A stretch of DNA of 64,000 bases, taken from positions 9,147 through 73,146 of the IMG/VR virus record IMGVR_UViG_3300037478_000223. One strand, 5' to 3'. This document shows, one piece after another, positions 976 to 59,865 of the stretch (positions are counted from its first letter, which is position 1; every line of letters begins with the position of its first letter). The DNA comes from a virus. Lineage: Duplodnaviria; Caudoviricetes. The notes under the pieces were generated by a model. That model made no database searches. It saw nothing but the letters and a program-made list of their open reading frames with translations, and was not told the origin of the DNA. Position numbers and translations under genes: made by a program.

Positions 976-1016
976 ACAACATACGTGTTGCGCCCGGTGC
1001 GGGATGAAAATAGAAT
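976..1016 (+). promoter_or_regulatory. Operator-promoter: ACAAC-N6-GTTGC overlapping TTGCGC-17-TAGAAT
   Basis: Direct sequence match. Confidence 0.85.
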
Positions 1017-1048
1017 GGGAGGCAACCCATCCACGACAGGAACGAGTC

Positions 1049-1585
1049 ATGCCCAAGATCTACGTATGCCGCCGGTGCGGAAACGCCACCACCAACCCGT
1101 CCCGGTACTGCCCAGCCTGCCGGTATCGCAAGGGGGCCCTTGCACCATCCCACAATGGTGCAAGGGCCCCCCTTTTCCCCCTCTGCCACACAGACTACCG
1201 GCCACGTGCCCGATTCTGCGCGTCAACCACATCGGCGCGCTTGACGCCCTTGGTCGGTGCGACGTCACTACTGATCCGCACCGAACCCACCTTCACCCCG
1301 GCCTCACGGAACAACTGGCCCACGTCCCGCGCGCCACACTCACCCCACGAGCCTGGGTCATGCGCTCGCAGCAGCGAAGCCAGCTCGCCCAGCCCGGCAG
1401 ACGGGCGAACCACAGTCCCGTCCAGCGGCCACACGTCCACCACCGCGTCCAGGAACACACCAGACGTCCCGTCATCGTCGTCCGCCGGGACATCTCCGGC
1501 CGCCATCCCGGACAGCGTGCCAGCCTCACGCCGCATGGCCTCGATTTCCTTCACCATCGCGTGCACGCTCGGCAAGTCCAGGTAG
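1049..1585 (+). CDS. Possible zinc-ribbon protein (CRRC...CPAC); 3' part runs antisense into traB
   Basis: RBS AGGA plus ATG just after the promoter; no stop before the hairpin at 1132, so true end uncertain. Confidence 0.3.
   Translation: MPKIYVCRRCGNATTNPSRYCPACRYRKGALAPSHNGARAPLFPLCHTDYRPRARFCASTTSARLTPLVGATSLLIRTEPTFTPASRNNWPTSRAPHSPHEPGSCARSSEASSPSPADGRTTVPSSGHTSTTASRNTPDVPSSSSAGTSPAAIPDSVPASRRMASISFTIACTLGKSR
1132..1176. terminator. 17-bp perfect stem hairpin, T-run on plus side
   Basis: GGGGGCCCTTGCACCAT / ATGGTGCAAGGGCCCCC followed by CTTTT; just past the traB stop. Confidence 0.8.
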
Positions 1586-3387
1586 GACAGCTTCGTCTTG
1601 ACCATCGAACCACCAGCGATCCCGATGAACGCGACACCCGGCGTGTCGATGTCCACCGCACGGTAGCCCCGGCCGTGAGCATCGGACCCGAGCGCGATAT
1701 TCGCGTCAGCGATGCTGTTCTGCGCGTGCCCGACGCGGTGCTTGCACCGGTCCAGGATCCGCGCCGGAACAGTGCCTTCCTTCGCGCCCTGGAACACGAG
1801 CCGGACCGTGATTCCGACCGAGCGAGCCGTCTGCACGACGTCCAACAAGCTGTCTTCGGCCTCGTTCGCGATCGGGGACAGGAACACACGCGGGACCTCG
1901 TCCAGCAGCACGAACACCGGCCGCATGTCCTGGCGATCCGCCAACGCGTCGGTCAGCTTCGAGTCCGGGCATTCCTCGAACGGAAGCGTCTCCAACACCT
2001 TGTTCCGCCGTGCGACCTCGGACCGGAGCCACTTCAACGTCCCCATGAACGCCTCCAGGTCCGCCGCGTCGCACCCGTTGCGCAAGGTGTGCGCGATCGG
2101 CGCGAACGCCTTGTAGTCCAGCCCACCCTTGAAGTTGTGGATGGCCAAGAGCGTTCGCGGGTCCATCGCGGCACCCAGGATCAGCAGCCGCGCGGTAGCC
2201 GACTTCCCGGAACCGACGTCGCCAGCAATCCCGCCGTTCGTCTCGAACAACGGCACGATGACATCCCGACCCCGCGCGTCCACGCCGACCGGAACACCAT
2301 CGAAGTACGAGCGCGAGCGCACCTGAGCCCACTTCCACGCCGGAGACGGCATGCGGGACAGCAGCCCGTCAGCAACGAACAGCTCGAACGCACCCGGCGA
2401 CACGTCCGGCAACGGCTCCACCACCAGGCACTCAGCAGGCTTGCCCATCGCGGACGCGAACCGGCCGTGACGCTTGATCAACTCAGCCGTCTCCAGTCCA
2501 GGAGCCATCCTCACCGTGAGCAACACGCCACCCTGCACGCGCTCACCAGACATCACGCGCGACTTGGCACCGTGCAGGGCACCGAACCCGGACATGGCCA
2601 ACGCGTTCTCCACGGTGGTGACCAACGCCTGATCCTCGTGAGACGACGGAGCCAGTTCCTTGGGATCCTTCGACCTGAACAGGTGAAACTTCCCCTGCAC
2701 CGGATCCCCCTCCGGCATCTGCGCAGTCACGACCACCGGCCGCACCGACTCCACAGCACCGGGACCGTCCGGCACGGGCGCTCGAAGATCTTCCGGCACC
2801 TCGGCACGTAACGGCCACGTGTTACGGCGCTCGCGGACGCCCGCGACGATGAACACGGTGACGGTTCCTGCGATCACGGCTGCCGGGACGGTCCCCCACT
2901 TGCCGTGTTCGGACCACATCCACGCCGCGAAGAACGGGGAGGCGACCACAGCCAGGCGCAGCAGCTTCCCGCGTCCCTTCCCGGCCGCGACCCAGTTCTT
3001 GGCTCGTACGGCGCTGACCTTCACCCCGAGGGCGAAGTACAGCGGCGCGCGCACGATGTGGAATGCGGCGATACGGCCTGTGTATGCGGCGCGTGCCTTG
3101 AAGCCGCCACGGACACGCGGGATCGGGACCGGGCGCACGACGGGCGCGGGCTGCGGCGCGACAACTGCCCCGGCGGGAACCGTCTGCGCTGTGGCCGGTT
3201 CGACGACGGGCCCGTTGTCCGGCTCCGCGTCGCCGCTCGCTGTGTCGTTGCTGTCGAAGGTCTCTTCGATCCGGTCAAGCGAATCATCGGCTTCGAGCAT
3301 GTCCAAGAGCCGTTCGTTCACCTCGTCAGCTTCGTAGCCGCTGAGCCGTTCGTGGTCGCCGTCGTCGTAGTGTGCATTGTCGGTCAT
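1195..3387 (-). CDS. traB: TraB-type FtsK/SpoIIIE conjugative DNA translocase
   Basis: N-terminal TM segments, Walker A GDVGSGKS, AMDPR...HNFKGGLDY, Walker B VFVLLDEV, C-terminal winged-helix-like domain; architecture of actinomycete plasmid TraB. Confidence 0.85.
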   Translation of the reverse strand: MTDNAHYDDGDHERLSGYEADEVNERLLDMLEADDSLDRIEETFDSNDTASGDAEPDNGPVVEPATAQTVPAGAVVAPQPAPVVRPVPIPRVRGGFKARAAYTGRIAAFHIVRAPLYFALGVKVSAVRAKNWVAAGKGRGKLLRLAVVASPFFAAWMWSEHGKWGTVPAAVIAGTVTVFIVAGVRERRNTWPLRAEVPEDLRAPVPDGPGAVESVRPVVVTAQMPEGDPVQGKFHLFRSKDPKELAPSSHEDQALVTTVENALAMSGFGALHGAKSRVMSGERVQGGVLLTVRMAPGLETAELIKRHGRFASAMGKPAECLVVEPLPDVSPGAFELFVADGLLSRMPSPAWKWAQVRSRSYFDGVPVGVDARGRDVIVPLFETNGGIAGDVGSGKSATARLLILGAAMDPRTLLAIHNFKGGLDYKAFAPIAHTLRNGCDAADLEAFMGTLKWLRSEVARRNKVLETLPFEECPDSKLTDALADRQDMRPVFVLLDEVPRVFLSPIANEAEDSLLDVVQTARSVGITVRLVFQGAKEGTVPARILDRCKHRVGHAQNSIADANIALGSDAHGRGYRAVDIDTPGVAFIGIAGGSMVKTKLSYLDLPSVHAMVKEIEAMRREAGTLSGMAAGDVPADDDDGTSGVFLDAVVDVWPLDGTVVRPSAGLGELASLLRAHDPGSWGECGARDVGQLFREAGVKVGSVRISSDVAPTKGVKRADVVDAQNRARGR

Positions 3388-3484
3388 GGCGGGGGTTCCT
3401 TCCGGTGGGGGATGTGCGTCGGTCCCGCCGCGTGAGTGGTACGGCGGGACCGACTGGAGGGGCAACAGGGGGTAGGCGCGCGTG

Positions 3485-3889: not shown

Positions 3890-4026
3890 GGGTGGTTGGT
3901 GCCTCTCTTGTTGGCTGTGAGGCAGCTAGGATGTGTCTGCCTCGTTGGTTGGGGTTGGGCTGTGACTGCTGTCTCCCGTCTTACTGGAGGGCGGGAGGCA
4001 GCGCGCTCGCGGTGCAGGGGGCTGGG

Positions 4027-4299
4027 TCAGTCCTCGCCGTGGAACTGCTTGTGGATCTTCCGGGAGGCGATCACGCGCCGGACTTGCTGGGGTGTGAGTC
4101 CGAACATCTTGCCAATCTTCCCGGTCGTGAGGCCACCCTTCGAGGGGGTAGTTTCGTCACGGTCCTGGGTGTAGATCCGGTAGATCTCGGCATCACGTTC
4201 GGCCAGTGCCCGGCTGGACTCTTCACGCGCTTGGGTCAGCTTGACGGCCAGGGGGTGCAGCGCGGGTTCCTGCGGTTCCTCCTTCGAGTTTCGGGTCAT
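4027..4299 (-). CDS. Small HTH DNA-binding protein, candidate master repressor
   Basis: LTTGKIGKMFGLTPQQVRRVI HTH; GAAAGG RBS; two perfect operators upstream. Confidence 0.75.
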   Translation of the reverse strand: MTRNSKEEPQEPALHPLAVKLTQAREESSRALAERDAEIYRIYTQDRDETTPSKGGLTTGKIGKMFGLTPQQVRRVIASRKIHKQFHGED

Positions 4300-4325
4300 G
4301 GTTGCCTTTCTGGTGGACGAATATT

Positions 4326-4376
4326 GCAACGCCAATGTTGCCACACCACACACCCTTAATGCAACTAGAACGTTGC
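4326..4376. promoter_or_regulatory. Two perfect GCAAC-N6-GTTGC operators (4326-4341, 4361-4376); leftward promoter TTGCAT-18-CAACAT
   Basis: Direct sequence; the leftward -10 is non-canonical. Confidence 0.75.
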
Positions 4377-4402
4377 GCGCGCGTGGGTGCTTCCCGTACA
4401 GT
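4361..4402 (+). promoter_or_regulatory. Operator-promoter TTGCGC-18-TACAGT for the rightward membrane/hydrolase operon
   Basis: Direct sequence match. Confidence 0.75.
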
Positions 4403-4447
4403 CAGGGACCGACACCACACTCACCACGCATGGAAGGAACCACCACC

Positions 4448-4887: not shown

Positions 4888-4890
4888 CCC

Positions 4891-7373: not shown

Positions 7374-7414
7374 ACGTTACACACTTCCTCGCGCGTGCGC
7401 AACATCAACGTTGC
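7374..7414 (-). promoter_or_regulatory. Operator-promoter GCAAC-N6-GTTGC, TTGCGC-17-TAACGT
   Basis: Direct sequence match on minus strand. Confidence 0.85.
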
Positions 7415-9572: not shown

Positions 9573-9576
9573 GTGC

Positions 9577-9612
9577 TCACTGGAACGGTCACTGGAACGG
9601 TCACTGGAAAGG
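9577..9612. repeat. Three tandem 12-bp repeats TCACTGGAA(C/A)GG
   Basis: Copies at 9577, 9589, 9601. Confidence 0.85.
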
Positions 9613-9680
9613 ACAAGGGAGCGGGCCGATAGTTCGTCACCAGCATGTTTACGCGGTTTCTGAGGGACACGAGCGAGGAC

Positions 9681-9711
9681 ATGACACCCGCTTACATAAA
9701 GCGGGTGTCAT
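9681..9711. terminator. 13-bp perfect inverted repeat
   Basis: ATGACACCCGCTT-ACATA-AAGCGGGTGTCAT. Confidence 0.6.
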
Positions 9712-9892
9712 CGTTGTGGGACTCGGCGCCGTGCACGTTGATCACGGATCATCGCTTCGAGTTCAGCTACCGATGGTCCGGTAGGCGGCCATGCCCGTCG
9801 CGCTGCTTCCTCTACAGGAAGTGAATCTCTGACACGGCGAGCCTCCAAGAGGATCCGGCCCGCATCGCGTATCGCTTCCTAGCTCGGACGTC

Positions 9893-10111
9893 TCATCGAT
9901 CTTCTTCGATGGATTCAGGTGGAGGAAGCCAGCCGTGCACGCCACAGTCCGAGCATGGAACGTTGCTCCAGTACCTCCGCAGTCGCCGTCCAGATTCCAC
10001 GTCTGCATCGATGAATCCCGATGGAAGCGGGTAGTCGTGCACCCGGTTCGGGCAATCCGTGTCTCGGGGGCCCGGTGTTTCGTCTCCACCACAGATGTAA
10101 GTCATCCTCAC
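9893..10111 (-). CDS. Small Cys-rich protein
   Basis: ATGA coupling; CSDC motif. Confidence 0.55.
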   Translation of the reverse strand: MRMTYICGGDETPGPRDTDCPNRVHDYPLPSGFIDADVESGRRLRRYWSNVPCSDCGVHGWLPPPESIEEDR

Positions 10112-10353
10112 TTCGTGATCCCATCAAGGATCTGCGCGTCGTCAGCGTCGTCCCACCCTGGCACGCTCCACCCGTGCCATCCGCACGCCCTCCGCATCCC
10201 TGAGCCCCAGAACGTGCACACGTAATGCGTGTGCATGTGGTGGCCGTGTTCGTTGTCCATGCGGTAGCCCAGGATTCTGCGGTGTCCGCAATCGGGACAC
10301 GGCAGTTTCGGAACCAAGAACCCAGCAGGGTCCCGGGGGCGCCCGTTGGTCAT
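10108..10353 (-). CDS. Small zinc-finger protein
   Basis: CPDC, HTHYVC, CGWH motifs; ATGA coupling. Confidence 0.55.
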   Translation of the reverse strand: MTNGRPRDPAGFLVPKLPCPDCGHRRILGYRMDNEHGHHMHTHYVCTFWGSGMRRACGWHGWSVPGWDDADDAQILDGITK

Positions 10354-10520
10354 GCTGTGTCATCCCGTGTCGCGTCTTCGATGCTTTCCGCAGTCCAGAA
10401 CGTGCCCCCACAGTACGGACACCACAGGATCTCAACACCCACAGTCCATACCGGCTTGCCGTCGAACCCGACATCGAAAGAGTGCGTCATGCGCGCGATG
10501 TCTTCGTGGTCGCAGACCAT
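10350..10520 (-). CDS. Small protein with CPYC motif
   Basis: Hand-translated MVCDHEDIARM...WCPYCGGTFW; coupled at both ends. Confidence 0.5.
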   Translation of the reverse strand: MVCDHEDIARMTHSFDVGFDGKPVWTVGVEILWCPYCGGTFWTAESIEDATRDDTA

Positions 10521-10717
10521 CAGCAAGGCTCAGCAAGGTTGATCTTCCCCGCCGACGTGGCGCGCCCGATCACCGCGCCGCATACCTGGCACAGCAGGTT
10601 CCACCAGCCGCATCCGCAATCGCATGGGTCGCTCGTGCGAGGCCCGATCTTCTCCGGGTCGATGCGGTCGATGTCTGAGCAGTCCGGGCAGGCAAGGATG
10701 TCGATGGTGTCGGCCAT
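10520..10717 (-). CDS. Small zinc-finger protein
   Basis: CPDC, CDCGC, CQVC motifs. Confidence 0.55.
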   Translation of the reverse strand: MADTIDILACPDCSDIDRIDPEKIGPRTSDPCDCGCGWWNLLCQVCGAVIGRATSAGKINLAEPC

Positions 10718-10720
10718 GCC

Positions 10721-10975
10721 TCATGGTCTCCCACTCGCACGACCGTCTTCGATGCTGTATTCGAGTCCATCCCTGCTGAACTTCACCGGCCGTAGTCCCT
10801 TCTCTTGATCTGGCGTAAGCACGAAGCCTGTGACCGCGATGCCGGGGCACTCCTTCGTGTAGGTGTGCGGTCCGGTCCGGACAAGCAGGTCATCAGGAAG
10901 GATCGGGTACCGGGCGGCGCGGGGGTTTGCACCCTCGATCGTCTCGGTAGCTCGGAATCCATCTATCCCCTTCAT
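10721..10975 (-). CDS. Hypothetical protein
   Basis: Co-oriented, tight packing. Confidence 0.55.
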   Translation of the reverse strand: MKGIDGFRATETIEGANPRAARYPILPDDLLVRTGPHTYTKECPGIAVTGFVLTPDQEKGLRPVKFSRDGLEYSIEDGRASGRP

Positions 10976-11290
10976 CGTCCGATCATCCCACTCGCACGAG
11001 TCGCGGTGCCGGGTAGTAATGGGAGTAATACGTTACTACTAGAACTACCTACTAGTTTGGTAGGAGATACCTGCCTGTATTGACGTCCATCGATACAGCA
11101 CGCTCGTGCCCACCACAGTGGGCACTTGCCCAAATGCCAACTGTGGTGGGCACCGGCGTGGACACGGCAGACGTGATAGGAAGGGGGTTGTCCGCCAAGA
11201 CACCAGGTGATCACGCGATGATCTGGGCACATGAGGCCGGGCCGGAGGGCGGATGGGCGCCCCGGCCCGGCTTCGCGTGCGGGACGATGC

Positions 11291-11373
11291 AGGAGTGTGG
11301 CAGAGCGGTCGATCGCGCCCGGCTGTAAACCGGGTCCCTTCGGGGGACGGGGGTTCGAATCCCTCCACTCCTA
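11291..11373 (+). tRNA. tRNA-Tyr (GTA), long variable arm
   Basis: Acceptor AGGAGTG/CACTCCT, anticodon arm CCCGG-CTGTAAA-CCGGG, TPsiC GGGGG-TTCGAAT-CCCTC, discriminator A, CCA not encoded. Confidence 0.92.
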
Positions 11374-11377
11374 CCGG

Positions 11378-11608
11378 TTAGTCCCGAGGGTTCGGAACCC
11401 CGAACAGTTCCTTGTGAAGGTTCTGGCAGTATCCCCATACGTCGAACGTCTCGGACTCAGCGCCAGCAGCACGCGACACTAGCCGGTGGCAACGCGTCAG
11501 GTCACCATCGGTCCCCCACCGGATTTGCGCGGCGCCTTCCCCCATCTTCCAATACGTCTTGAGGCGTTCACTGGACAGAACTGCGGCAGTAGGTGATTCA
11601 TCATTCAT
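11378..11608 (-). CDS. Conserved actinophage protein (ERLKTYW...IRWGTDGDLTRC family)
   Basis: Motif seen in actinophage head-region proteins. Confidence 0.65.
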   Translation of the reverse strand: MNDESPTAAVLSSERLKTYWKMGEGAAQIRWGTDGDLTRCHRLVSRAAGAESETFDVWGYCQNLHKELFGVPNPRD

Positions 11609-26437: not shown

Positions 26438-26452
26438 GGCGATTTCCACCAA

Positions 26453-26511
26453 TCTGTAAGGGTTGTTCGTTCTCTGCCTTACAGACAGGTGGACTACCTC
26501 GCCTTACAGAC
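26453..26511. promoter_or_regulatory. Capsid-operon leader with two direct and one inverted copy of CCTTACAGA
   Basis: TCTGTAAGG 26453, GCCTTACAGAC 26476 and 26501. Confidence 0.55.
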
Positions 26512-26601
26512 GTGGTGCCGCTACTTCTCGCATGGTAGACGATCTAGTGTGTCTGCGCGCGTCGGCGCGTCGCTGGCGTGTCGCTGGTGGGTGGCATGGG
26601 T

Positions 26602-26633
26602 GCGCCCCCGCACCTGGGATGGTGCGGGGGCGC
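26602..26633. terminator. 13-bp stem hairpin insulating the capsid operon from upstream genes
   Basis: GCGCCCCCGCACC / GGTGCGGGGGCGC. Confidence 0.7.
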
Positions 26634-26646
26634 TGTGGTGGTGGGG

Positions 26647-26782: not shown

Positions 26783-26823
26783 ACGTTACACACATCATCG
26801 GGGGATCGCAACTCCCGCGTTGC
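26783..26823 (-). promoter_or_regulatory. Operator-promoter GCAAC-N6-GTTGC, TTGCGA-17-TAACGT
   Basis: Direct sequence match. Confidence 0.85.
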
Positions 26824-29037: not shown

Positions 29038-29078
29038 AGCGTAAACGCCGCGCCCCTGTGATGCAACGCGGGGGTTGC
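29038..29078 (-). promoter_or_regulatory. Operator-promoter GCAAC-N6-GTTGC, TTGCAT-17-TACGCT, inside a larger inverted repeat
   Basis: Operator forms the centre of CCGCGCCCCTGTG...CACAGGGGCGCGG. Confidence 0.8.
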
Positions 29079-33129: not shown

Positions 33130-33182
33130 ATGTTACACACATGAACGGCCTACCGCAACATCAGCGTTGCGGTAGGCCGTTC
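33130..33182 (-). promoter_or_regulatory. Operator-promoter TTGCGG-17-TAACAT; operator is the apex of a 17-bp perfect hairpin (33143-33182)
   Basis: GAACGGCCTACCGCAAC-ATCAGC-GTTGCGGTAGGCCGTTC. Confidence 0.85.
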
Positions 33183-38730: not shown

Positions 38731-38771
38731 ACGTTACACGCCTGCCCGGTGTGGTGCAACGTTGCCGTTGC
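38731..38771 (-). promoter_or_regulatory. Operator-promoter GCAAC-N6-GTTGC, TTGCAC-17-TAACGT
   Basis: Direct sequence match. Confidence 0.85.
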
Positions 38772-38776: not shown

Positions 38777-39904
38777 TTAACCGGCCGTGACCTGCCGCAA
38801 CAGATCCATCGGGGATGCCTCGATCGCCGGTCCCTCGGACGTGGCAGCACCCTGAGCCGCTTCTCGTTCCAGGCGCTCCATCTCTGACGTCAGGATCGCC
38901 TTACGCCGGTCCATCGGGCGCATCGACGCGCCGCCGTCTCGCGCACGGACGGCCTGAGCCTGCATCTTGGCGTAGTTCTTCCGCAGCGAAGCGGCCCCGA
39001 GGATCACCCCGGACCAGAACTGATCCGCACGCGCCCAGTCGATCGCAGCGCGAACCTTCTCGGGGCTACGCCCGTCGATGTCCACGAGCCTGCGCATCGT
39101 GTCGAACGCGTTCTTGCTCGCCTTCGGGCGCTCGCCGGTGCACTGCTGCACGGACTCGGCCAGGTACTCCAGGAGTTCGAGGATGTCCGGCCGCGCGTCC
39201 GCTACGCCCTTCCACGCGGCCTGCTTCGGCTTGGAAGCGCCCGGGGCGTCATGGCCGGGTGCGGGGACGTCCTGGACGTGCTGGGGCGCCTCTGCGTGGT
39301 TGTGGCCGTCAGCGCGAGAGCGTCCGCACCGGACGCACCCGGGGGCGTCTTCGTCGGCGTCTTCGTCGATGGTGGGTTGCGTCGGCCCTGCCGCGTCAGC
39401 GGCCGGGGGGAGATCCGCGTCAGCGGTTCGAGGGGTGTCGTTCTTCCACTGGCTCTCGTTCAACTGGCTCTCGTTCTTTCCCTCCCCACTTACTGGGGAG
39501 GCCCCCTCCCCACTTACTGGGGAGGCCCCCTCCCCACTTACTGGGGAGGCTGCCGGGTCCGGTGCGAGGGGGATGACTTCGACCGTGTAGCTCGTTGAGG
39601 TCTGCATCCCGTTGTCGCGGAATCGCAGTTCACGGGTCAGGGCTCCGGCCGTGACCAGTTCGGCAAGCCACTTGTCGATCGACGTCAACGAGACGCCCGT
39701 TTCTCCCAGGGTGCGGCCGGGCATCCTCTCGGCCAGGGTCTTGCGCTTGGGCCACGCTTCGTCGTCCGTGTTCGCGTAGCGGGCCAGGAGTGCGTACAGG
39801 CGCATGGCTCCGTTGGAGATGTTCGGGTCCATGATGATCCACTCGGGGATCTGCGCGAATCGGACTCGTGCCCGGACTCCAACGCGTTCGTGGCTGTCGG
39901 CCAT
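38777..39904 (-). CDS. Replication initiator, lambda-O-like (N-terminal HTH, C-terminal FWSGVIL...LRKNY)
   Basis: FAQIPEWI...AMRLYALL...AWPKRKTLAERM wHTH; internal DNA repeats. Confidence 0.8.
   Translation of the reverse strand: MADSHERVGVRARVRFAQIPEWIIMDPNISNGAMRLYALLARYANTDDEAWPKRKTLAERMPGRTLGETGVSLTSIDKWLAELVTAGALTRELRFRDNGMQTSTSYTVEVIPLAPDPAASPVSGEGASPVSGEGASPVSGEGKNESQLNESQWKNDTPRTADADLPPAADAAGPTQPTIDEDADEDAPGCVRCGRSRADGHNHAEAPQHVQDVPAPGHDAPGASKPKQAAWKGVADARPDILELLEYLAESVQQCTGERPKASKNAFDTMRRLVDIDGRSPEKVRAAIDWARADQFWSGVILGAASLRKNYAKMQAQAVRARDGGASMRPMDRRKAILTSEMERLEREAAQGAATSEGPAIEASPMDLLRQVTAG
39446..39550. repeat. Iteron-like repeats inside initiator gene (probable origin)
   Basis: 3 x 24 bp CCTCCCCACTTACTGGGGAGGCCC (39481, 39505, 39529), each internally palindromic; 2 x 15 bp C(C/A)ACTGGCTCTCGTT. 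Confidence 0.8.
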
Positions 39905-40002
39905 GTTCCACCTCTCTGCGTCGAGAGTGGTAGCAGCAACCCAGCGTGAGCATGTAGACTTCTCACGTTCATCAGGTTTGGAGTGCTCTACCACTCGAAT
40001 CT

Positions 40003-40041
40003 AGGCCGGACCCCGTAGCGGGGGTCCGGCCTGAACTTTTT
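40003..40041 (+). terminator. 12-bp stem hairpin followed by T5
   Basis: AGGCCGGACCCC / GGGGTCCGGCCT then GAACTTTTT. Confidence 0.6.
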
Positions 40042-40101
40042 CCTGACGGTCAGCGTACATGCCGCAGCAGGGTTCGTCGCGCGACGCGTGGAGTGTGTCA
40101 G

Positions 40102-40142
40102 GCAACATCGAAGTTGCACGTCGGGGCTGTGATCTGTAACGT
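40102..40142 (+). promoter_or_regulatory. Operator-promoter GCAAC-N6-GTTGC, TTGCAC-17-TAACGT
   Basis: Direct sequence match. Confidence 0.85.
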
Positions 40143-41058: not shown

Positions 41059-41099
41059 ACAACGCCCGTGTTGCGGGCATCACGGAGAGTCCGTAACGT
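41059..41099 (+). promoter_or_regulatory. Operator-promoter ACAAC-N6-GTTGC, TTGCGG-17-TAACGT
   Basis: Direct sequence match. Confidence 0.8.
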
Positions 41100-42486: not shown

Positions 42487-42527
42487 GCAACACGGGGGTT
42501 GCATGCGTTACACACGTGCGGTACTGT
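42487..42527 (+). promoter_or_regulatory. Operator-promoter GCAAC-N6-GTTGC, TTGCAT-17-TACTGT
   Basis: Direct sequence match. Confidence 0.8.
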
Positions 42528-45266: not shown

Positions 45267-45307
45267 GAAACGTTAGGGTTGCGCATTGGAGCGACGGTGC
45301 GTAACGT
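45267..45307 (+). promoter_or_regulatory. Operator-promoter GAAAC-N6-GTTGC, TTGCGC-17-TAACGT
   Basis: Direct sequence match. Confidence 0.8.
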
Positions 45308-46767: not shown

Positions 46768-46808
46768 CCAACCTGTAGGTTGCACCATGGTCCGATGATG
46801 TGTAACGT
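46768..46808 (+). promoter_or_regulatory. Operator-promoter CCAAC-N6-GTTGC, TTGCAC-17-TAACGT
   Basis: Direct sequence match. Confidence 0.8.
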
Positions 46809-47548: not shown

Positions 47549-47589
47549 GAAACGCTCACGTTGCGTGGCTGTGCAGTGGTGCGTAACAT
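47549..47589 (+). promoter_or_regulatory. Operator-promoter GAAAC-N6-GTTGC, TTGCGT-17-TAACAT
   Basis: Direct sequence match. Confidence 0.8.
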
Positions 47590-48810: not shown

Positions 48811-49224
48811 ATGGCGCAAGTGTCCATGTGGGACGGCAGAAAAGGCCGAAAACTGTTCTCCAAGTTCGACCTATCCCCGCCCGAGTGGCACCGGGATGCG
48901 GCCTGTGGACCCGACGACGCTGAGACATTTTCCCCGGCGGATACGGACACACGTGAGACCTTGCACGAAGAGATTGCACGCATCCGCAAGGCCAAGCAGA
49001 TCTGCCGCGCCTGCCCGGTGGTGACCCAGTGCCTCACCGACGCCTACGAGAACGAGCACGAAGAAGGGATCTGGGGCGGGCAATCCGAGTACGAGCGTCC
49101 CTACACGGACAAGGCAGCCAAGTACAGGGCTAAGAAGGTCGATGGCGACTCGCGAGAGGTCCGCATCATGCGCGCGGTGCAGGCCGGGGACATCCTCGCC
49201 GCGTTCGCCGGAGGTGCCGCATGA
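48811..49224 (+). CDS. WhiB-family transcription factor
   Basis: W...AAC...AKQICRACPVVTQCL...GIWGGQSEYER. Confidence 0.92.
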   Translation: MAQVSMWDGRKGRKLFSKFDLSPPEWHRDAACGPDDAETFSPADTDTRETLHEEIARIRKAKQICRACPVVTQCLTDAYENEHEEGIWGGQSEYERPYTDKAAKYRAKKVDGDSREVRIMRAVQAGDILAAFAGGAA

Positions 49225-50149: not shown

Positions 50150-50248
50150 ACAACGTCCGGGTTGCACAACGGCCCGGACATGTGTAACGTAGTGCTCACG
50201 AGGTCAGGGAAACAGTCCCCAACCCGAACAGACCAGGAGGTCACCATG
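50150..50248 (+). promoter_or_regulatory. Operator-promoter (TTGCAC-17-TAACGT) plus conserved long leader, cassette 1
   Basis: 50182-50245 identical over 64 bp to 54434-54497. Confidence 0.9.
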
Positions 50249-50542
50249 GACACCACAACCAAGCAGCCCACCACCTTCACCCTCTGGGTTTCCGCCTACG
50301 GCGGGTGGAACTGGGACAAGACCACCGGATCTCAGGTCCGCGTCACGTTCGAGGGACCAAACGCCGACGCCATGGCGGCTGTCTACATCCGCGACCACGG
50401 TTACCTTGCCATCAGCGGCGACGACGGCAACGCCTGGGACAACTTCCCCCTCGCCACTGCCCAGCTCTACCCGTCATGCGTACACGGCATGTCTCTTTGG
50501 CTGTGCGCAGGCCCCGACCACTACCCGAACGACTTCAACTGA
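50246..50542 (+). CDS. Hypothetical protein (cassette 1 cargo)
   Basis: AGGAGG RBS. Confidence 0.75.
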   Translation: MDTTTKQPTTFTLWVSAYGGWNWDKTTGSQVRVTFEGPNADAMAAVYIRDHGYLAISGDDGNAWDNFPLATAQLYPSCVHGMSLWLCAGPDHYPNDFN

Positions 50543-51593: not shown

Positions 51594-51634
51594 GAAACGT
51601 AGGGGTTGCGCAACCCCCGCGATGTGTGTAACTT
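51594..51634 (+). promoter_or_regulatory. Operator-promoter GAAAC-N6-GTTGC, TTGCGC-17-TAACTT; extra palindrome GGGGTTGCGCAACCCC
   Basis: Direct sequence match. Confidence 0.8.
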
Positions 51635-53040: not shown

Positions 53041-53595
53041 ATGGAAGACGACGGACTCATGGACACGGTTGCAAACTCGGTTATCAGTGACCAAGCATGG
53101 GAAACATTGGTCTCAACTCACAACCCGTACCTCATCCGGCACACGCTGACGATGCTCCGCGCAGACATCAGAATCCAACGCGACCGGCGCAAAGCCTGGC
53201 TACAGGAAGGAACCTGGACAGACGACGAATATCACGCGTGGAGCAAGAAGGTCGCCAGGTTCTCAGGCAGCGTCAACACCCGGCTCACCCAGATAGAACA
53301 GATCGCGCGACAGCGCCCCGACGAAACCACCAAGAACTACTACCGTCGCCGCCACGCCGAGGACACGAGCGTCATCGCCGCACTCACCAGGGCCATTGAT
53401 GCCTACCTGGAAGACGAGAACATGAGCGCGTCAATCCTGGAAGAGGCGTTGGACATCCTGCGCAACTTCGGGCCTGAGCACGGTGACATGACCCTCATTG
53501 CCGCACTGGACGCCGGACTGTTCGACAACAGCAAGTCACCACGCCGAGACACCGGCGCCAACATGGAGGTTGCGAACCTGCCCGAAAGTGTGTAA
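53041..53595 (+). CDS. Hypothetical helical protein
   Basis: 184-aa ORF; stop codon is the TAA of the next -10 box. Confidence 0.6.
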   Translation: MEDDGLMDTVANSVISDQAWETLVSTHNPYLIRHTLTMLRADIRIQRDRRKAWLQEGTWTDDEYHAWSKKVARFSGSVNTRLTQIEQIARQRPDETTKNYYRRRHAEDTSVIAALTRAIDAYLEDENMSASILEEALDILRNFGPEHGDMTLIAALDAGLFDNSKSPRRDTGANMEVANLPESV

Positions 53596-53655
53596 CGTAC
53601 GTGGGGAGGTCAGGGGAAACCGACCCCAACCCGAACCGGCCAGGAGGTCACCATG
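53558..53655 (+). promoter_or_regulatory. Operator-promoter (TTGCGA-17-TAACGT) plus long leader, cassette 2
   Basis: Leader homologous to cassette 1. Confidence 0.85.
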
Positions 53656-54401: not shown

Positions 54402-54501
54402 GCAACACTCATGTTGCACATTGCGTCTGATGCGTGTAACGTAGTGCTCACGAGGTCAGGGAAACAGTCCCCAACCCGAACAGACCAGGAGGTCACCCGT
54501 G
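54402..54501 (+). promoter_or_regulatory. Operator-promoter (TTGCAC-17-TAACGT) plus long leader, cassette 3
   Basis: Perfect operator; 64-bp identity to cassette 1. Confidence 0.9.
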
Positions 54502-55390: not shown

Positions 55391-55392
55391 CG

Positions 55393-55737
55393 ATGACTAC
55401 ATACACCGACCGGGACCGCGTTCGTGTCATCTCGGATGAGAAGACATGGGAGAACGCCCTACGCGAAGCGACGTTCGTCACCGTGGTCACCAGGGACCCA
55501 CGAGTCGTCGCCGCCCGAATGCCCGAGGGACGCTACATCGTCGGCCGGATCATCGGCCCACACACCGCGAAGTCTGCGACAGACGTCTTCCCCGAAGATC
55601 ACGACATGGTGCAGATGTCCCCGATCATCACCCACGGCGCCGAACTCATCATGACCCAAGACCCTGACGCACCGGACGGCCTGACCATCCGATGGAAGGG
55701 ACTCACCCCCGACGACACGAAGGAGACAAGCTCGTGA
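55393..55737 (+). CDS. Hypothetical protein
   Basis: AGGAGA RBS. Confidence 0.6.
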   Translation: MTTYTDRDRVRVISDEKTWENALREATFVTVVTRDPRVVAARMPEGRYIVGRIIGPHTAKSATDVFPEDHDMVQMSPIITHGAELIMTQDPDAPDGLTIRWKGLTPDDTKETSS

Positions 55738-56249
55738 GCACGCTCACCGAAGAAGGCGCGAACGCCGGATGGCTGCGCATGACGCGGCACGCCCTCGGCC
55801 TCACCGTCGAAGACCTCGCGTTCATCCTGGACGTCAACCGCGACCACATCCGCAAGGTATGGGAACGCGGCATCGCCCCCCTCCCGCCCGGAGTCGTCGC
55901 AGAGGTGGAACGGTTCGTGGACTTCACCGACACCATCGTTGACGTTCTATGCGCCCGCGCCGAACGCACCGAACAGCCCGCGATCGTCGTATATGGCAGC
56001 CCGGCCGACATCCCCCCAACCCACATCGCATCAGCGTACGGTCACGACTGGTGGGACCACATCGCATTCAGCGTGGCCCGCAAGGTGGCTGACGTCTATA
56101 TCGGAACCGCACGCGACGTAGCCGACGTCTACGCCATCCCGAACCCCGCCGACGTCCACGCACACCCGGGCGTCCTACACATCCCAGCGACCGGCGACGA
56201 AGCGGCACGTCGCATCGCCCGGCGCCGCAATGAGGTGCCCACGCCATGA
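55734..56249 (+). CDS. XRE-type HTH protein, DUF1870/Aca2-YdiL-like
   Basis: LRMTRHALGLTVEDLAFILDVNRDHIRKVWERGIAPLPPGV. Confidence 0.7.
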   Translation: MSTLTEEGANAGWLRMTRHALGLTVEDLAFILDVNRDHIRKVWERGIAPLPPGVVAEVERFVDFTDTIVDVLCARAERTEQPAIVVYGSPADIPPTHIASAYGHDWWDHIAFSVARKVADVYIGTARDVADVYAIPNPADVHAHPGVLHIPATGDEAARRIARRRNEVPTP

Positions 56250-57110: not shown

Positions 57111-57134
57111 TGCTGGGCTGCCTGCAACCCGTTC

Positions 57135-57232
57135 GCAACTCCCGGGTTGCACACGCGCTCGAATGTGTGTAACGTAGTGCTCACGAGGTCAGGGGAACGG
57201 CCCCAACCCGAACCGGCCAGGAGGTCACCATG
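57135..57232 (+). promoter_or_regulatory. Operator-promoter (TTGCAC-17-TAACGT) plus long leader, cassette 4
   Basis: Perfect operator; homologous leader. Confidence 0.9.
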
Positions 57233-57460
57233 AAGAACAACACCACCACCGCACCCATCGCCGCTGACCTCAAGCCGGGCGACGTGGTCCAGTACGACAA
57301 GCGCAACGACTGGAAGATCATCGAGATCATCTCCACCACGGCCAAGACCATCACGGTACGCATCGAGTACATGCGATTCGACTTCATCGGCGGTGAACAG
57401 CGCTTGGGGACGCAGGAGACGCGCACGTTCCGCAAGGCGACCAGCATCACCCTGATCTGA
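57230..57460 (+). CDS. Small SH3-like beta protein (cassette 4 cargo)
   Basis: AADLKPGDVV...WKIIEI pattern. Confidence 0.7.
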   Translation: MKNNTTTAPIAADLKPGDVVQYDKRNDWKIIEIISTTAKTITVRIEYMRFDFIGGEQRLGTQETRTFRKATSITLI

Positions 57461-57468
57461 ACCACCCC

Positions 57469-57494
57469 GAGCCGGGCCCACAAGGGCCCGGCTC
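57469..57494. terminator. 11-bp stem hairpin, near-copy of 58469-58497
   Basis: GAGCCGGGCCC-ACAA-GGGCCCGGCTC. Confidence 0.7.
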
Positions 57495-57518
57495 ACACAC
57501 GAGAAAGGACGCACCGCC

Positions 57519-58133
57519 ATGAAGTACACGATTGCTGGCCTCGCCGCGATGCACCAGATGTCCACCGAACGCGTTCGCTGGGCACTGTCGTTCCCGAACA
57601 AGGTCGTGAGCGATCCAATCTGCCCGGACGCGGAAGAAGTCACCATGACACCAGCAGAAAACATCCTGCTCGCCCAGATGGCGCAGTACTGGCGCGACGC
57701 TGACGCACAGTCCGGCGGTGAGGTACTGCATTGGCTTTCGCGGCCACCAGTCGCCCTGGAGTGGGACCTGGTGCACGCCCAGGGTGGCGAGCGCGACGCG
57801 GAAGCGCGTCGGCTCGGCTACCGCGTGGCCCTGTCGCAGTGGCTTGCGCACAGCCGCGCCGTCCCGCTTGAAGGGGCGCTCGTGTCGATGGATTACGACG
57901 GCGCGCCCTGGCACGTCGTCCGCTCAGTCGAATGGAAGATGTATCCCCCGCGCGTCAACACCACGATGCCCGAAGGCGTCCTTGTCACCTTCGACGCCCC
58001 GGCCGATGCGCCTACGTGGCAAAGGATCTGGAATATGGACATCATCACGAACGTCCGCATGCGCGTCACTGGGACAGACGCACTGATCCTGGAACGTGCG
58101 GGTTGCGCATCCGCCCGGATGTGTGTAACGTAG
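57519..58133 (+). CDS. Hypothetical protein (possible N-terminal HTH-like segment)
   Basis: GAAAGGA RBS; 3' end runs through next promoter. Confidence 0.55.
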   Translation: MKYTIAGLAAMHQMSTERVRWALSFPNKVVSDPICPDAEEVTMTPAENILLAQMAQYWRDADAQSGGEVLHWLSRPPVALEWDLVHAQGGERDAEARRLGYRVALSQWLAHSRAVPLEGALVSMDYDGAPWHVVRSVEWKMYPPRVNTTMPEGVLVTFDAPADAPTWQRIWNMDIITNVRMRVTGTDALILERAGCASARMCVT

Positions 58134-58188
58134 TTCTCGCGAGGTCAGGGGAACAGCCCCAACCCGAACAGACCCGGAGGTCACCATG
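58091..58188 (+). promoter_or_regulatory. Operator-promoter (TTGCGC-17-TAACGT) plus long leader, cassette 5
   Basis: GGAAC-N6-GTTGC; homologous leader. Confidence 0.85.
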
Positions 58189-58458
58189 GCTCAGATGACG
58201 GACATCCTCGGCACCACCGCCAAGTTCGCCAACATCACCCAGGTTTCCACCTTCCCCACCGGCGACAAGATCATCCTGGGCACCCTGGCCTCTGGCGCCT
58301 GGGGCATCGCGGTCAAGGCCCGTAACTACGGCTACGCGGTCCTGTGGACCCGCGAGACCGAGGGCGACGCCCGCCAGGTCGCCAACCAGGCATGGACCGC
58401 CACCAAGGACCAGAACGGAAACGTCACCTACGGCGGCCCGGGTTACCCCCGCCGCTGA
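58186..58458 (+). CDS. Hypothetical protein (cassette 5 cargo)
   Basis: GGAGG RBS. Confidence 0.75.
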   Translation: MAQMTDILGTTAKFANITQVSTFPTGDKIILGTLASGAWGIAVKARNYGYAVLWTRETEGDARQVANQAWTATKDQNGNVTYGGPGYPRR

Positions 58459-58517
58459 CCACCCACACGAGCCGGGCCCCCACACGGGGTCCGGCTCCCT
58501 GCATGAGAGGGAACACC

Positions 58518-58826
58518 ATGGAGCGAAAGACGCTCGCAGAGCACACCGCAGACGTCCTACGGGAGCGCGGAGAGACCCGCGTGGACATCGGGGACCTTGA
58601 CGTCCTCGCAGAGGCTTACAGCCGCACAGGCGGCATCGTGGGCCACCCCCTGGACCGGAACCAGGCCGTGACACGCGCACTCGCCCACACCGTGTCCGGC
58701 AAGCGCCTGTTCCGCATCGCCGCGAAGACCGTCATGTATCCCGGGATCATCAACACACCCGTGAACGTGTTCGAGCTGCGCGACACCACCCGCGACACCG
58801 ACGAGACTGGAGACCATGAGCACTGA
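58518..58826 (+). CDS. Hypothetical protein
   Basis: GAGAGGGA RBS. Confidence 0.6.
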   Translation: MERKTLAEHTADVLRERGETRVDIGDLDVLAEAYSRTGGIVGHPLDRNQAVTRALAHTVSGKRLFRIAAKTVMYPGIINTPVNVFELRDTTRDTDETGDHEH

Positions 58827-59160
58827 AACCACCGACCAGACACCCACCACCGACACCCGTCCGTGGTGGGTGTCCTGGTACGCGAGCGGAGCGTTCACCT
58901 ACCACGGGCCATGGTGGATCACCGGATACGCCCCCGACGACGAAGGCTCGTACAGCATCAGCATCATCTGTGCCGCCGTCATGGCCGACAGCGCCCACAA
59001 CGCCCAGCAAGTCATCTGGGACGCACACGACGACCCGGCAGACGGATTCGACGGATGGCGCATGACCGACCCGTGCGAACCTGGTTGGGAACCGTTCGCA
59101 GACCGGTTCCCCCGTGCGGAGTGGATGCGCTGGCCGTGGCCCCAGGTTGACGCGTCATGA
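58816..59160 (+). CDS. Trp-rich hypothetical protein
   Basis: GGAGA RBS; coupled. Confidence 0.6.
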   Translation: MSTETTDQTPTTDTRPWWVSWYASGAFTYHGPWWITGYAPDDEGSYSISIICAAVMADSAHNAQQVIWDAHDDPADGFDGWRMTDPCEPGWEPFADRFPRAEWMRWPWPQVDAS

Positions 59161-59495
59161 CGCGTCTACGGCTCGTTGTCGAAGCCGACCACGCACCCAT
59201 CACCGACGACGCCGAAGCCTCCGAAGAGCTAAACCAGCACTGGCGCACAGCCCGGCGCGCGTATGGCGACATCGTCCGCCTCATGGGAACCGAGCGCATG
59301 CGATGGCTCATCACCGGTCCATCGGGCCCGCTCTCACAACGAAGGTTCGAGCAGTTCGAACACGACGCACGCGCCCTCGCGCAAGCCGCGACGGCGCTCG
59401 CGGACGTGACACACCGATCAGTCCTGGTATTCCAGCGTCGGGAGGAAGCCCAGAAACTCCAGAGCACCGAGGAAGACAGCAAGCCCGATGCCTGA
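59157..59495 (+). CDS. Hypothetical protein
   Basis: ATGA coupling. Confidence 0.55.
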   Translation: MTRLRLVVEADHAPITDDAEASEELNQHWRTARRAYGDIVRLMGTERMRWLITGPSGPLSQRRFEQFEHDARALAQAATALADVTHRSVLVFQRREEAQKLQSTEEDSKPDA

Positions 59496-59862
59496 GATCG
59501 TCTTAACCCATCACGATCTACCGCCACGGTGGGACGGCTGGCCGGTCAACTGGAACGGGTGGGGATGGGCAGGGGTCATCCTGTGTCAGCCACGCCGGGC
59601 AGGCGGACCGCTGCCGGACGTGTGCGACAAGTGCGGGAACGTCGCGGAGCAGCCAGTCAACCGGGGCGAAGCACAGCCCGAGCGACCCAACGGCCGCCGC
59701 ATCCTGCTGATCGCGTTCCGCTGCCCCAGATGCCGCCACGACATCGTGTGCTCTGGCTCGCAGTGGTGGGACCTGGAACCTGCTGACTACCTGGACGCTG
59801 GGAGCACTGACCCGACATCCGGTAGCAACGCTCAGGTTGCACAACCAACGAAAGGTGTGTAA
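59488..59862 (+). CDS. Zinc-finger hypothetical protein (CDKC, CPRC)
   Basis: Motifs; stop is TAA of next -10. Confidence 0.55.
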   Translation: MPEIVLTHHDLPPRWDGWPVNWNGWGWAGVILCQPRRAGGPLPDVCDKCGNVAEQPVNRGEAQPERPNGRRILLIAFRCPRCRHDIVCSGSQWWDLEPADYLDAGSTDPTSGSNAQVAQPTKGV

Positions 59863-59865
59863 CGT
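59825..59865 (+). promoter_or_regulatory. Operator-promoter GCAAC-N6-GTTGC, TTGCAC-17-TAACGT
   Basis: Direct sequence match. Confidence 0.85.

Follow-up and report, generated by a model that had tools for sequence, protein, structure and literature searches.

A dispersed palindrome over the -35 of phage promoters: candidate operators of a phage-encoded dimeric regulator

Several bacteriophages place a short DNA site at many positions of their genomes and control transcription through it. In the Streptomyces phage phiC31, studied by Wilson, Ingham and Smith in the 1990s, the repressor c is said to act at conserved inverted repeats (CIRs) found at many dispersed loci beside conserved promoters. 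Lytic phages have activator boxes that sit within the promoter itself: the T4 MotA box at -30, an asymmetric site that depends on AsiA, and the Mu Mor/C dyads, which overlap the -35 at a handful of promoters. Operators of the 434 type (Xre family) are 14-bp palindromes, ACAA-N6-TTGT, with a 4-N6-4 layout, bound by a dimer of small HTH domains.

The stoperators of Cluster A/CA mycobacteriophages are asymmetric sites of 13-14 bp that are bound by a monomer, oriented to transcription, located mostly outside promoters, and used to stop elongation (PMC9283540, PMC6550527, PMC13313380). Cluster O mycobacteriophages carry more than 30 invariant copies of a 17-bp palindrome, TGTTCGG-N3-CCGAACA, for which a dimeric binder was proposed; these sites lie mostly away from promoters, and the authors considered a transcriptional role unlikely (PMC4351075). 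In conjugative plasmids of Streptomyces, GntR-type TraR/KorA proteins act locally in kil-kor control of traB (PMC4447253). Here, we analyze a repeated palindrome in an uncultured actinobacterial phage, using a 64,000-nt window that corresponds to bases 9147-73146 of the 73,146-bp virus record.

A palindrome at a fixed distance from the -10

The motif nnAAC-N6-GTTGC, a 16-bp box with half-site centres 11 bp apart, occurs at 22 loci in the window and at 30 loci in the whole virus. Compared with shuffled sequence, AAC-N6-GTTGC is in strong excess in the window (34 strand matches versus 1.76 +/- 1.53), as is the perfect palindrome GCAAC-N6-GTTGC (12 versus 0.05). Genome-wide, 18 of the 30 loci are perfect, and an unbiased scan returned the box as the top palindrome of this phage (18 versus 0.12 expected). 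An earlier sequence-only reading had listed 21 boxes, twelve of them perfect and the others with left arms ACAAC, CCAAC, GAAAC or GGAAC; each coordinate holds a box with the arms described, and one further locus was found at 60528. This orphan, a plus-strand match GCAAC-N6-GTTAA (60528..60543), lies inside a gene, has no -10, and is consistent with chance.

At 27 loci genome-wide, 20 of them in the window, the GTTGC arm serves as a promoter -35 (TTGCNN). The -10, TAnnnT, follows exactly 17 bp past TTGCNN at 26 of these 27 promoters and at 18 bp once, at 4361. The reading had already seen this spacing in 20 of its 21 boxes; the exception is 4326. Its list of -10 hexamers (TAACGT, TAACAT, TAACTT, TAGAAT, TACGCT, TACTGT and TACAGT) holds as well. 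Each of these 20 boxes reads as a promoter in a single orientation, always toward a gene on the same strand whose start codon, preceded by a conserved leader and an RBS, lies about 35-70 nt past the -10. Almost every recognisable promoter of the phage carries the box over its -35, and of the genome's 24 GTAACNT words, 23 stand in the exact arrangement GTTGC-N18-GTAAC.

A -35 element does not by itself explain the distal AAC, as the reading had argued. All 26 GTTGC sites with TAnnnT at 17 bp carry AAC-N6, versus 22 of 191 other GTTGC sites (Fisher p = 9e-21), and those 22 are mostly the opposite arms of perfect palindromes. An AAC no commoner at promoters than at other GTTGC sites, which the reading had named as the result that would speak against it, is not what we observe.

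Transcription units headed by the boxes

The leftmost box of the window, ACAAC-N6-GTTGC with TAGAAT (976..1016, plus strand), drives a small ORF (Zn-ribbon) with its start at 1049; both are conserved in the relative L048. Two perfect boxes stand before the minus-strand HTH gene g19. At 4326..4341, neither direction offers a -10 at 17 bp; this box overlaps a CAACAT -10-like hexamer and the start region before g19 and is conserved in L048 and L049. The other pairs with TACAGT at 18 bp (4361..4402, plus) and heads a membrane-protein/endolysin-like operon; read on the minus strand, its other arm is 18 bp away from the CAACAT that precedes g19.

The remaining minus-strand promoters all have perfect boxes. 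Three belong to TAACGT modules: 7374..7414, with a second weak box GTAAC-N6-GTTGT over the -10/+1; 26783..26823, heading a unit that runs from a 31-aa ORF through a GC hairpin to the major capsid gene; and 38731..38771, driving the gene downstream of a replication gene and carrying a second weak box over its -10. The box of the TACGCT promoter (29038..29078) is nested in a long hairpin, and that of a TAACAT module (33130..33170) in a 17-bp hairpin.

On the plus strand, perfect boxes form TAACGT modules at 40102..40142, 54402..54442 (heading the unit that contains g114), 57135..57175 and 59825..59865, the last with a second weak box over the -10 and at the head of a gene string ending in the large terminase; a further perfect box with TACTGT (42487..42527) precedes a DUF2637-like membrane gene. 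TAACGT modules with imperfect arms comprise the ACAAC boxes at 41059..41099 and 50150..50190, the CCAAC boxes at 46768..46808, before the exonuclease gene, and 53558..53598, the GAAAC box at 45267..45307 and the GGAAC box at 58091..58131; those at 50150 and 53558 have hairpin-type leaders. GAAAC boxes also occur with TAACAT at 47549..47589, before the Erf gene, and with TAACTT at 51594..51634.

Most transcription units of the 73-kb genome begin with one of the 27 box promoters, 20 of which lie in the window; among them are the units that lead into the capsid/tail and terminase genes. This departs from the sequence-only reading, which saw early, lytic and conjugative functions as the regulon and no box at the capsid or terminase genes: box 26808, with its canonical -10, heads the capsid unit, box 59825 heads the terminase string, and structural and packaging units belong to the set. 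No box promoter is oriented with the helicase-loader/replication gene (38777-39904, minus strand), which the reading had counted as a target, and the replication initiator appears to be exempt. Nor do the data support the proposed immunity of a lysogen, since no tyrosine or serine integrase, ParB or ParA-like gene was found in this phage; a tyrosine integrase is also absent from three complete relatives, and the more than 120 capsid relatives are all on phage-sized contigs. Because of the missing integrase and partition genes, there is also no obvious state that needs a global repressor.

Related phages and candidate binders

In the syntenic relative L048/L057, the box arms changed at 2 of 50 positions and the AAC/GTT core at 0 of 30, compared with 16 of 30 in the N6 and 35 of 60 in the -35/-10 spacer; the pair of boxes preceding g19 is retained as well, at a spacing of 34 bp instead of 35. 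In a more distant lineage (L052-L056), cTTGACA-N17/18-TACTGT stands ahead of the same conserved leader and RBS, without the palindrome, and these full TTGACA promoters are evidence that those underlying the boxes would be SigA-type. For the complete relatives G006 and G007, the unbiased scan returned a different top palindrome, CCACAT-GC-ATGTGG, next to the same leader as in this phage. It abuts the -10 (TACTGT) of 7 promoters in one and 9 in the other, lies at about -26 to -13, and supplies the TG of an extended -10. No outstanding palindrome emerged from the scan of G005. The GCAAC-N6-GTTGC-type box is absent from the related complete phages, and neither operator type exceeds chance in the lineage that has the other. 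The putative operator changes in sequence and position between lineages and always stays inside the core promoter, a pattern that speaks for a steric repressor encoded by the phage rather than for an activator or a host factor.

Wherever a dispersed palindrome is present, two HTH genes, g19 and g114, are present as well. Homologues of both are absent from the covered portion (about 40 of 51 kb) of the palindrome-free L052-L056 lineage; G005, which has no dispersed palindrome, lacks g114 and has only a weak g19-like gene. Either protein could be the binder, and we regard both as candidates only. The 90-aa g19 (4027..4299, minus strand) is the first gene of an operon with an FtsK/TraB-like gene, and its AF2 model (pLDDT 81) comprises a long helix followed by an HTH. 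A g19 homologue matches Pfam Sigma70_r4 (E 6.6e-4), and Foldseek and PDB profile lists weakly place SigA region 4 on top for g19, a similarity below every significance threshold; its structural look-alike in the Atlas is a Mor-family activator (TM 0.65). The recognition helix is nearly unchanged across lineages with different operators (TPQQVRRV, TPEHVRRI, TPEQVRRI), which, together with the g19-like gene of G005, weakens the case for g19. The 171-aa Xre/HTH_31-like g114 (55734..56249, plus strand) has a poor model (pLDDT 54), and its Xre-like assignment comes from sub-threshold Pfam hits.

Operator function and comparison with known systems

On balance, we favour a reading in which a dimeric HTH regulator encoded by the phage, probably a repressor, binds the boxes as operators built into the phage's own SigA-type promoters. 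We infer that a dimer would bind both arms, of which GTTGC doubles as the -35 while the distal nnAAC, one helical turn upstream and without a promoter role, would be retained for the protein alone. With a transcription start 7 nt past the -10, the box would span about -47 to -32. Sigma region 4 reads the TTG of the -35, and the proximal half-site coincides with it, which we count for repression; a bound repressor would exclude sigma-A region 4 from this TTG. A GTT stands 6 nt after the -10 AAC in 4 of 23 modules (binomial p 2e-4), and these second weak boxes over the -10 likewise argue for repression, as do box 4326, which covers the -10-like hexamer and start region of g19, and the G006/G007 operator, from whose position abutting the -10 an ordinary activator cannot work. 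A second box over -10/+1, 34-35 bp away centre to centre, would strengthen repression before g19 and at four modules. Of the earlier proposal of one dimeric repressor at dispersed operators, the symmetric site locked to the -35 genome-wide, with arms conserved while the N6 drifts, stands; comparison with the relatives leans toward repression, and immunity is not supported.

Against this interpretation, the fixed geometry, the weak -35 and a box centre near -39.5 are also typical of a class II activator site, for which the position is -41.5. A phage-encoded class II-type activator (Mu Mor/C, LuxR- or CRP-type) that recruits host RNA polymerase at a weak -35 and renders nearly all phage promoters dependent on it is unlikely but merits serious consideration. 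The invariant distance to the -10 at 26 of 27 promoters would suit it, and the -35 TTGCRC shares just 3 of 6 positions with TTGACA, a hexamer that the sister lineage without the box has in full; the Mor-family structure nearest to g19 and the lack of recognisable lysogeny genes in this phage point the same way. However, the very TTG that sigma region 4 reads is covered by the proximal arm, which lies 2 bp nearer than class II sites do, and in the homologous G006/G007 regulon the palindrome occupies the spacer next to the -10, where activation is implausible. Further points against an activator are box 4326 and the second boxes over -10/+1, and an activator that controlled its own unit through such a promoter would have to be switched on independently.

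It is improbable that the box binds a host transcription factor through which the phage senses host state. The 5-N6-5 layout is common to many bacterial dimeric regulators; yet sister phages of the same family have a different palindrome or none, its presence tracks the phage HTH genes, and a scan for the module in 185,579 species genomes yielded scattered single chance matches only. Still less credit is due to explanations without a dedicated protein, in which the distal arm is an upstream element read by RNA polymerase or a passenger of a promoter cassette spread by duplication or recombination. The phage does encode exonuclease, Erf and RusA recombination functions, and the modules share long conserved blocks, some copies being identical over 60 bp. 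These blocks are, however, interrupted by freely varying N6 and spacer sequence, the arms are kept while adjoining bases diverge between phages, four further promoters carry the box with unrelated -10 regions, and site 4326 is not a -35. A role at the RNA level, with the palindrome forming the tip of hairpins that terminate the upstream units, is scarcely credible: three or four boxes (29063, 33155, genome 1503 and partly 38756) do lie in loops of long GC-rich hairpins, but about 20 other sites have flanks that do not pair, a stem of 5 bp closed by a 6-nt loop does not make a terminator, and the fixed 17-bp distance to the -10 has no RNA explanation.

With the boxes read as operators of a phage-encoded regulator, the regulon is most likely a variant, so far new, of a known kind of phage control. 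It may serve to keep up a carrier or lysogenic state, or to hold toxic genes in check in kil-kor fashion. The kil-kor systems resemble it in a small regulator gene beside FtsK-like translocase and membrane 'spread-like' genes and in repeats within a divergent intergenic region, although g19 has no GntR domain and the site here is genome-wide. phiC31 is likewise an actinophage, with one repressor said to work through a highly conserved dispersed inverted repeat; it is, however, an integrating temperate phage, whereas no integrase was found here. Its CIRs are concentrated in the early region and do not form the -35, and its early promoters are not sigma-70-like. With stoperators the box shares about 25-30 copies of a short site across an actinophage genome and one protein over nearly all transcription, but it is symmetric and strictly promoter-locked. 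Cluster O phages match in size (about 70 kb), G+C content (about 65%) and a repeated invariant palindrome, which differs in sequence and spacing, and they have no protein similarity to this phage. Like the MotA and Mor/C elements, the box is specific to the phage and takes the place of the -35, or overlaps it, at many promoters with a constant distance to the -10, whereas the geometry in relatives of this phage argues for repression. Finally, CAAC-N6-GTTG has the same layout as 434-type operators, in line with the tentatively Xre-like g114, but differs in half-site sequence and in number, with three plus three operators in lambdoid phages versus 28 here.

Palindromes fixed over the phage promoters

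The motif AAC-N6-GTTGC occurs as 34 strand matches at 22 loci in the window, against 1.76 expected, and its perfect palindromic form, GCAAC-N6-GTTGC, occurs 12 times against 0.05 expected. Across the whole genome, a 73,146-bp virus record rated complete by CheckV in which the window spans bases 9147-73146, this 16-bp box is found at 30 loci, 18 of them perfect, and GCAAC-N6-GTTGC ranks first among all 5-N(0-12)-5 palindromes in an unbiased scan (18 versus 0.12 expected). The box coordinates and arm variants listed in the sequence-only reading were all correct on checking. An additional match at 60528 is intragenic and lacks a -10, and two orphan box sites correspond to chance level. Searched with the correct spacing, species genomes and viral contigs yielded single chance matches only.

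At 27 loci, one arm supplies TTGCNN and is followed by TAnnnT after a spacer of 17 bp (26 loci) or 18 bp (the box at 4361), in a single orientation per locus and always toward a gene on the same strand. The start codon lies ~35-70 nt past the -10 and behind a ribosome-binding site (RBS), once a few gene starts from the codon model, which had been trained on this sequence, are corrected. All 27 loci have the SigA or sigma-70-type arrangement (-35 TTGnnn, 16-18 bp, -10 TAnnnT), and the box -35 agrees with the consensus at 3/6 positions; a generic promoter and terminator scan was uninformative at the 64% G+C of this genome. The box centre is located 27.5 bp before the -10, corresponding to approximately -39.5 if transcription starts 7 nt past the -10. 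A -35 accounts for the promoter-side arm, and the further claim that AAC is invariant at the distal arm was borne out: it is present at 26/26 GTTGC sites that have a -10 located 17 bp away versus 22/191 other GTTGC sites (Fisher p = 9e-21), the latter 22 being mostly opposite arms of perfect palindromes.

In 23 units, the -10 is embedded in a conserved block, gtGTGTAACGTAgt, and 23 of the 24 GTAACNT words genome-wide sit exactly as GTTGC-N18-GTAAC. The resulting module logo reads gCAAC-N6-GTTGC-rc-N10-a-n-GTGTG-TAACGT-agt, with N6 and the -35/-10 spacer free, and downstream of the conserved block comes one of two leaders, either GTCGGGAAC...ACGGAGG-ATG or the hairpin leader GGTCAGGGAA...TCCC. 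A ~60-nt leader whose hairpin covaries (GGTCAGGGAAACAGTCCC, GGGGAACGGCCCC and the like) comes after a subset of modules, as seen at 50190-50250, 53600-53650, 54445-54500, 57178-57230 and 58134-58186. At 379-409 in whole-record coordinates, two back-to-back boxes overlap by one base, one for each of two divergent module promoters, so each promoter needs its own full palindrome and shares no perfect one.

Several other readings of the box were rejected. An ECF-sigma promoter, with AAC as -35 and CGT/GTC as -10, finds no conserved element 16-17 nt past either AAC, and GTAAC and GTCGGGAAC are separated by a variable 9-14 nt. The box recalls the EcoKI site, AAC-N6-GTGC, but a type I restriction site of this kind is excluded by the symmetry and promoter-locking of the box, and a terminator hairpin reading is true for 3-4 sites only. 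Rfam searches gave no match at the boxes and one tRNA gene (11291-11373, plus strand, 53.7 bits), which is set in an extended gene-poor region (9573-11604), on the strand opposite to the surrounding tail-side genes.

Gene content and box-headed units

According to family searches, the minus strand carries structural genes of siphovirus type, for tape measure, major tail, head-tail adaptor and major capsid proteins. The large terminase gene is found at the right end and that of the portal within the first 9 kb of the record; a DnaD/replication initiator, an exonuclease, Erf, RusA and an FtsK/SpoIIIE-like protein are also encoded. A WhiB-like gene downstream of the recombination genes (48811-49224, plus strand; Pfam 67.6 bits) points to an actinobacterial host; a sister lineage carries a WhiB gene in an equivalent neighbourhood. 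Megablast and tblastn revealed no near relative among GenBank phages, with best matches of 29% identity for the capsid and 36% for the terminase. The record, labelled linear in IMG/VR, shows a common repeat of ~46 nt with one mismatch at its ends (genome 1-46 and 73101-73146), which would fit a terminal repeat as well as an overlap from assembly.

The sequence-only reading had found no box at the capsid or terminase genes, yet both lie in box-headed units. On the minus strand, the box at 26808 and its canonical -10 stand at the front of a unit that runs through a 31-aa ORF, a 13-bp GC hairpin lacking a U tract and a conserved leader to the major capsid gene, a layout kept in a close relative. 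The box at 59825 heads a tightly packed gene string ending in the large terminase. The region from the 31-aa ORF to the capsid gene (26450-26646, minus strand) holds this hairpin and, downstream of it, a unique element with two GTCTGTAAGGC copies and an inverted CCTTACAGA just before the capsid start; the element is conserved in the relative L057, occurs in altered form in L056 and L058, and may represent an RNA switch in the leader or a site of late-gene control.

The replication gene (38777-39904, minus strand), which had been counted among the targets, is not behind any box promoter. The box at 38756 drives the gene downstream of it, and the box at 40102 points away. The sole -10-like hexamer before the replication gene is a box-free TACGCT, 44 nt from the box and followed by GTCAGGAAA. 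Its leader (39905-40101) comprises ~160 nt with a 13-bp hairpin, which on the plus strand is followed by a T tract. The box at 976 drives a small zinc-ribbon ORF (1049-1130, plus strand; CRRCG...CPACR) that is conserved in the relative L048. This ORF converges on the FtsK-like gene, with a common GC hairpin and T tract between them, and tandem GCGCCATC repeats with a period of 12 bp lie upstream at 868-924.

Operators in related phages

Homologues of g19, a 90-aa helix-turn-helix (HTH) protein, occur on metagenome contigs with 86% and 64% identity. The syntenic contig L048 (18.5 kb) carries the same box at homologous places: two boxes precede the HTH gene, 34 bp apart versus 35 here, one box with its module sits at the counterpart of 7399, and further boxes are found after the FtsK-like gene and near the portal. 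Across five orthologous sites, the arms changed at 2/50 positions and the AAC/GTT core at 0/30, compared with 16/30 for N6 and 35/60 for the -35/-10 spacer. Arms kept while N6 and spacer drift have the appearance of a protein-type footprint.

A more distant lineage of ~51 kb (L052-L056), with a replication protein 64% and a capsid 61% identical to those studied here, has no box. Its promoters, cTTGACA-N17/18-TACTGT, precede the same leader and RBS as here, which argues that the phage promoters are of the host SigA type and that the palindrome over the -35 is an addition specific to one lineage. In full, these promoters read gcAGTCGGGATGGcTTGACA-N17/18-TACTGT with GTCGGAACAACCACGGAGG as the common leader, and a conserved non-palindromic block lies immediately 5' of the -35. 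Within the ~40 of 51 kb covered, this lineage lacks the FtsK-like module and the genes for both HTH proteins, g19 and g114.

Searches with the capsid sequence alone retrieved no viral-contig relatives, which were found with a capsid alignment. In three complete IMG/VR relatives of 55-57 kb (G005, G006 and G007), the box occurs at chance numbers only. The palindrome scan ranked CCACAT-GC-ATGTGG first in G006 and G007 (7-9 versus 0.01-0.08 expected), a sequence at chance level in our window, and no palindrome stands out in G005. This second palindrome directly abuts the -10 (CC-CACATGCATGTG-g-TACTGT), its right arm providing the extended -10 TG, at 7 promoters in G006 and 9 in G007, each with the same hairpin leader as here; one copy lies just 5' of the g19 homologue in both genomes. 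As the palindrome differs between sister phages, its reader should be encoded by the phage and not by the host. In both lineages, one arm overlaps a core element (-35 here, extended -10 there) and the other arm has no promoter role. The CCACATGCATGTGG promoters of G006 and G007 have the same ~60-nt hairpin leader downstream; being common to both operator types, this leader is older than either operator.

Candidate binders, mode of control and known systems

Three regulators are recognisable, namely g19, g114 and the WhiB-like protein, and profile searches found no sigma factor. For g19 (4027-4299, minus strand), the AF2 model (pLDDT 81) consists of a long helix followed by an HTH, and three weak signals suggest a resemblance to sigma-70 region 4. 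Its homologue P0003 matches Sigma70_r4 (PF04545) with 19.6 bits (E 6.6e-4), under the gathering cut-off of 24.1, its Foldseek list contains nearly exclusively SigA chains and isolated region 4 (1ku7_A, 4g8x_A; E 0.2-1.5), and its best PDB profile match is SigA (E 0.18, aligned over GxxFGxTxxxxRxx). g19 itself has no PF04545 match and no GntR match at E <= 5, and a six-frame search of the genome for PF04545 gave nothing at E <= 1. Together with a four-transmembrane gene and the FtsK/SpoIIIE gene, g19 forms one string with two boxes (4326 and 4361) in the divergent region, making it the only gene preceded by two boxes. The g19/FtsK-like arrangement is kept in L048, G005, G006 and G007, and g19 heads the FtsK-like operon in every lineage having that operon. 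Against g19 as the binder, its recognition helix is near-constant across lineages with different operators, and G005 has a weak g19-like gene with local repeats only and no dispersed palindrome.

The second candidate, the Xre-like g114 (55734-56249, 171 aa), matches HTH_31 (E 6e-4), Aca2/YdiL-like proteins (E 0.009) and PHROG 955 (E 5e-8), a family annotated as 'HTH DNA binding protein'; its Pfam scores are under the gathering thresholds (HTH_31, 20.5 bits versus 27; HTH_3, 12.5 versus 23) and its predicted model is poor (pLDDT 54). Homologues with 44-47% identity occur in G006 and G007, whereas G005 has none and the box-free lineage has none within the 40 kb covered. In all three genomes that have it, g114 lies inside a box-driven unit. 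The distribution of its homologues thus matches the regulon no worse than that of g19 does, and the phylogenetic profile does not separate the two. A far-reaching and, in our estimate, improbable scheme would make a g19 dimer a free-standing mimic of sigma-A region 4 on inverted TTGC half-sites, competing with host sigma, or replacing it, wherever the phage has a promoter; it would serve as a kil-kor switch for the whole genome of a non-integrating phage with a TraB-type DNA translocase, in a phage-plasmid-like carrier state in actinobacteria.

As to the sense of control, repression is placed ahead of activation, if not by a wide margin. Sigma region 4 reads the TTG of the -35, which the proximal arm covers, a point for repression. 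Further points for it are that the box at 4326 covers a CAACAT hexamer and the start region of g19, and that in 4 of 23 modules a GTT 6 nt past the AAC of the -10 creates a second weak box, its centre 34 bp from the first, equal to the spacing of the two g19 boxes. The box might also be a class II-type activator site. Class II activators bind as dimers to sites centred near -41.5 that overlap a poor -35, and the fixed geometry, weak -35 and centre near -39.5 seen here are typical of this class; g19 moreover has a Mor-family activator as structural neighbour in the Atlas. The operator of G006 and G007, however, fills the spacer next to the -10, which is a repressor position. The shift in operator position between lineages, from ~-47/-32 here to ~-26/-13 there, likewise favours repression, since steric repression tolerates a move of this kind and activation by polymerase contact does not.

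What such a switch would serve is a matter of conjecture. The sequence-only reading proposed a distributed immunity system, but the means of lysogeny were not found in the genome: profile searches gave no match to tyrosine or serine integrases (PF00589, PF00239), ParB (PF02195) or ParA-like proteins (PF13614), and PF00589 has no match in the relatives either. The capsid relatives, over 120 of them, are without exception on metagenomic contigs of phage size, none exceeding 73 kb, and none in bacterial genome records; immunity is therefore conjectural. The alternatives are three: a carrier or plasmid-like state, which would fit the box-free replication promoter, a kil-kor-like hold on the translocase and membrane genes, by analogy with a described system (PMC4447253), and a timed shut-off within the lytic cycle.

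The arrangement appears new in its symmetric operator, strictly fused to a core element in almost all promoters, in the different fused operator of sister phages, in the lysogeny genes not found alongside such operators by profile searches and, possibly, in a sigma-region-4-like binder. If correct, almost the entire transcription of a 73-kb actinophage would be governed by a single small protein, and escape from control would cost the promoter itself. The sister lineages with a palindrome fused to the extended -10 offer a natural series for operator/promoter co-evolution, and the 41-bp units could provide compact, portable and orthogonal switchable promoters for high-G+C bacteria. Why a genome without detected integrase or partition genes would need a global switch also bears on carrier states and the role of the TraB-like module.

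The likeness to cluster A stoperators drawn in the sequence-only reading held only in part, and the two differences it noted, symmetry (18 perfect palindromes) and promoter-locking (the -35 at 27/30 loci), stood. Cluster A sites are asymmetric 13-14 bp sequences bound by a monomer and lie within and between genes, where they act on elongation rather than being locked to promoters (PMC9283540, PMC6550527), and the 17-bp palindrome of Cluster O is mostly not at promoters (PMC4351075). As in TraR/KorA kil-kor systems, a regulator gene has an FtsK-like traB as its neighbour and the divergent intergenic region contains repeats, but unlike the GntR-type TraR/KorA, g19 has no GntR winged-helix domain. 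In concept, the nearest analogue is the phiC31 repressor paired with its conserved inverted repeats, which are dispersed.
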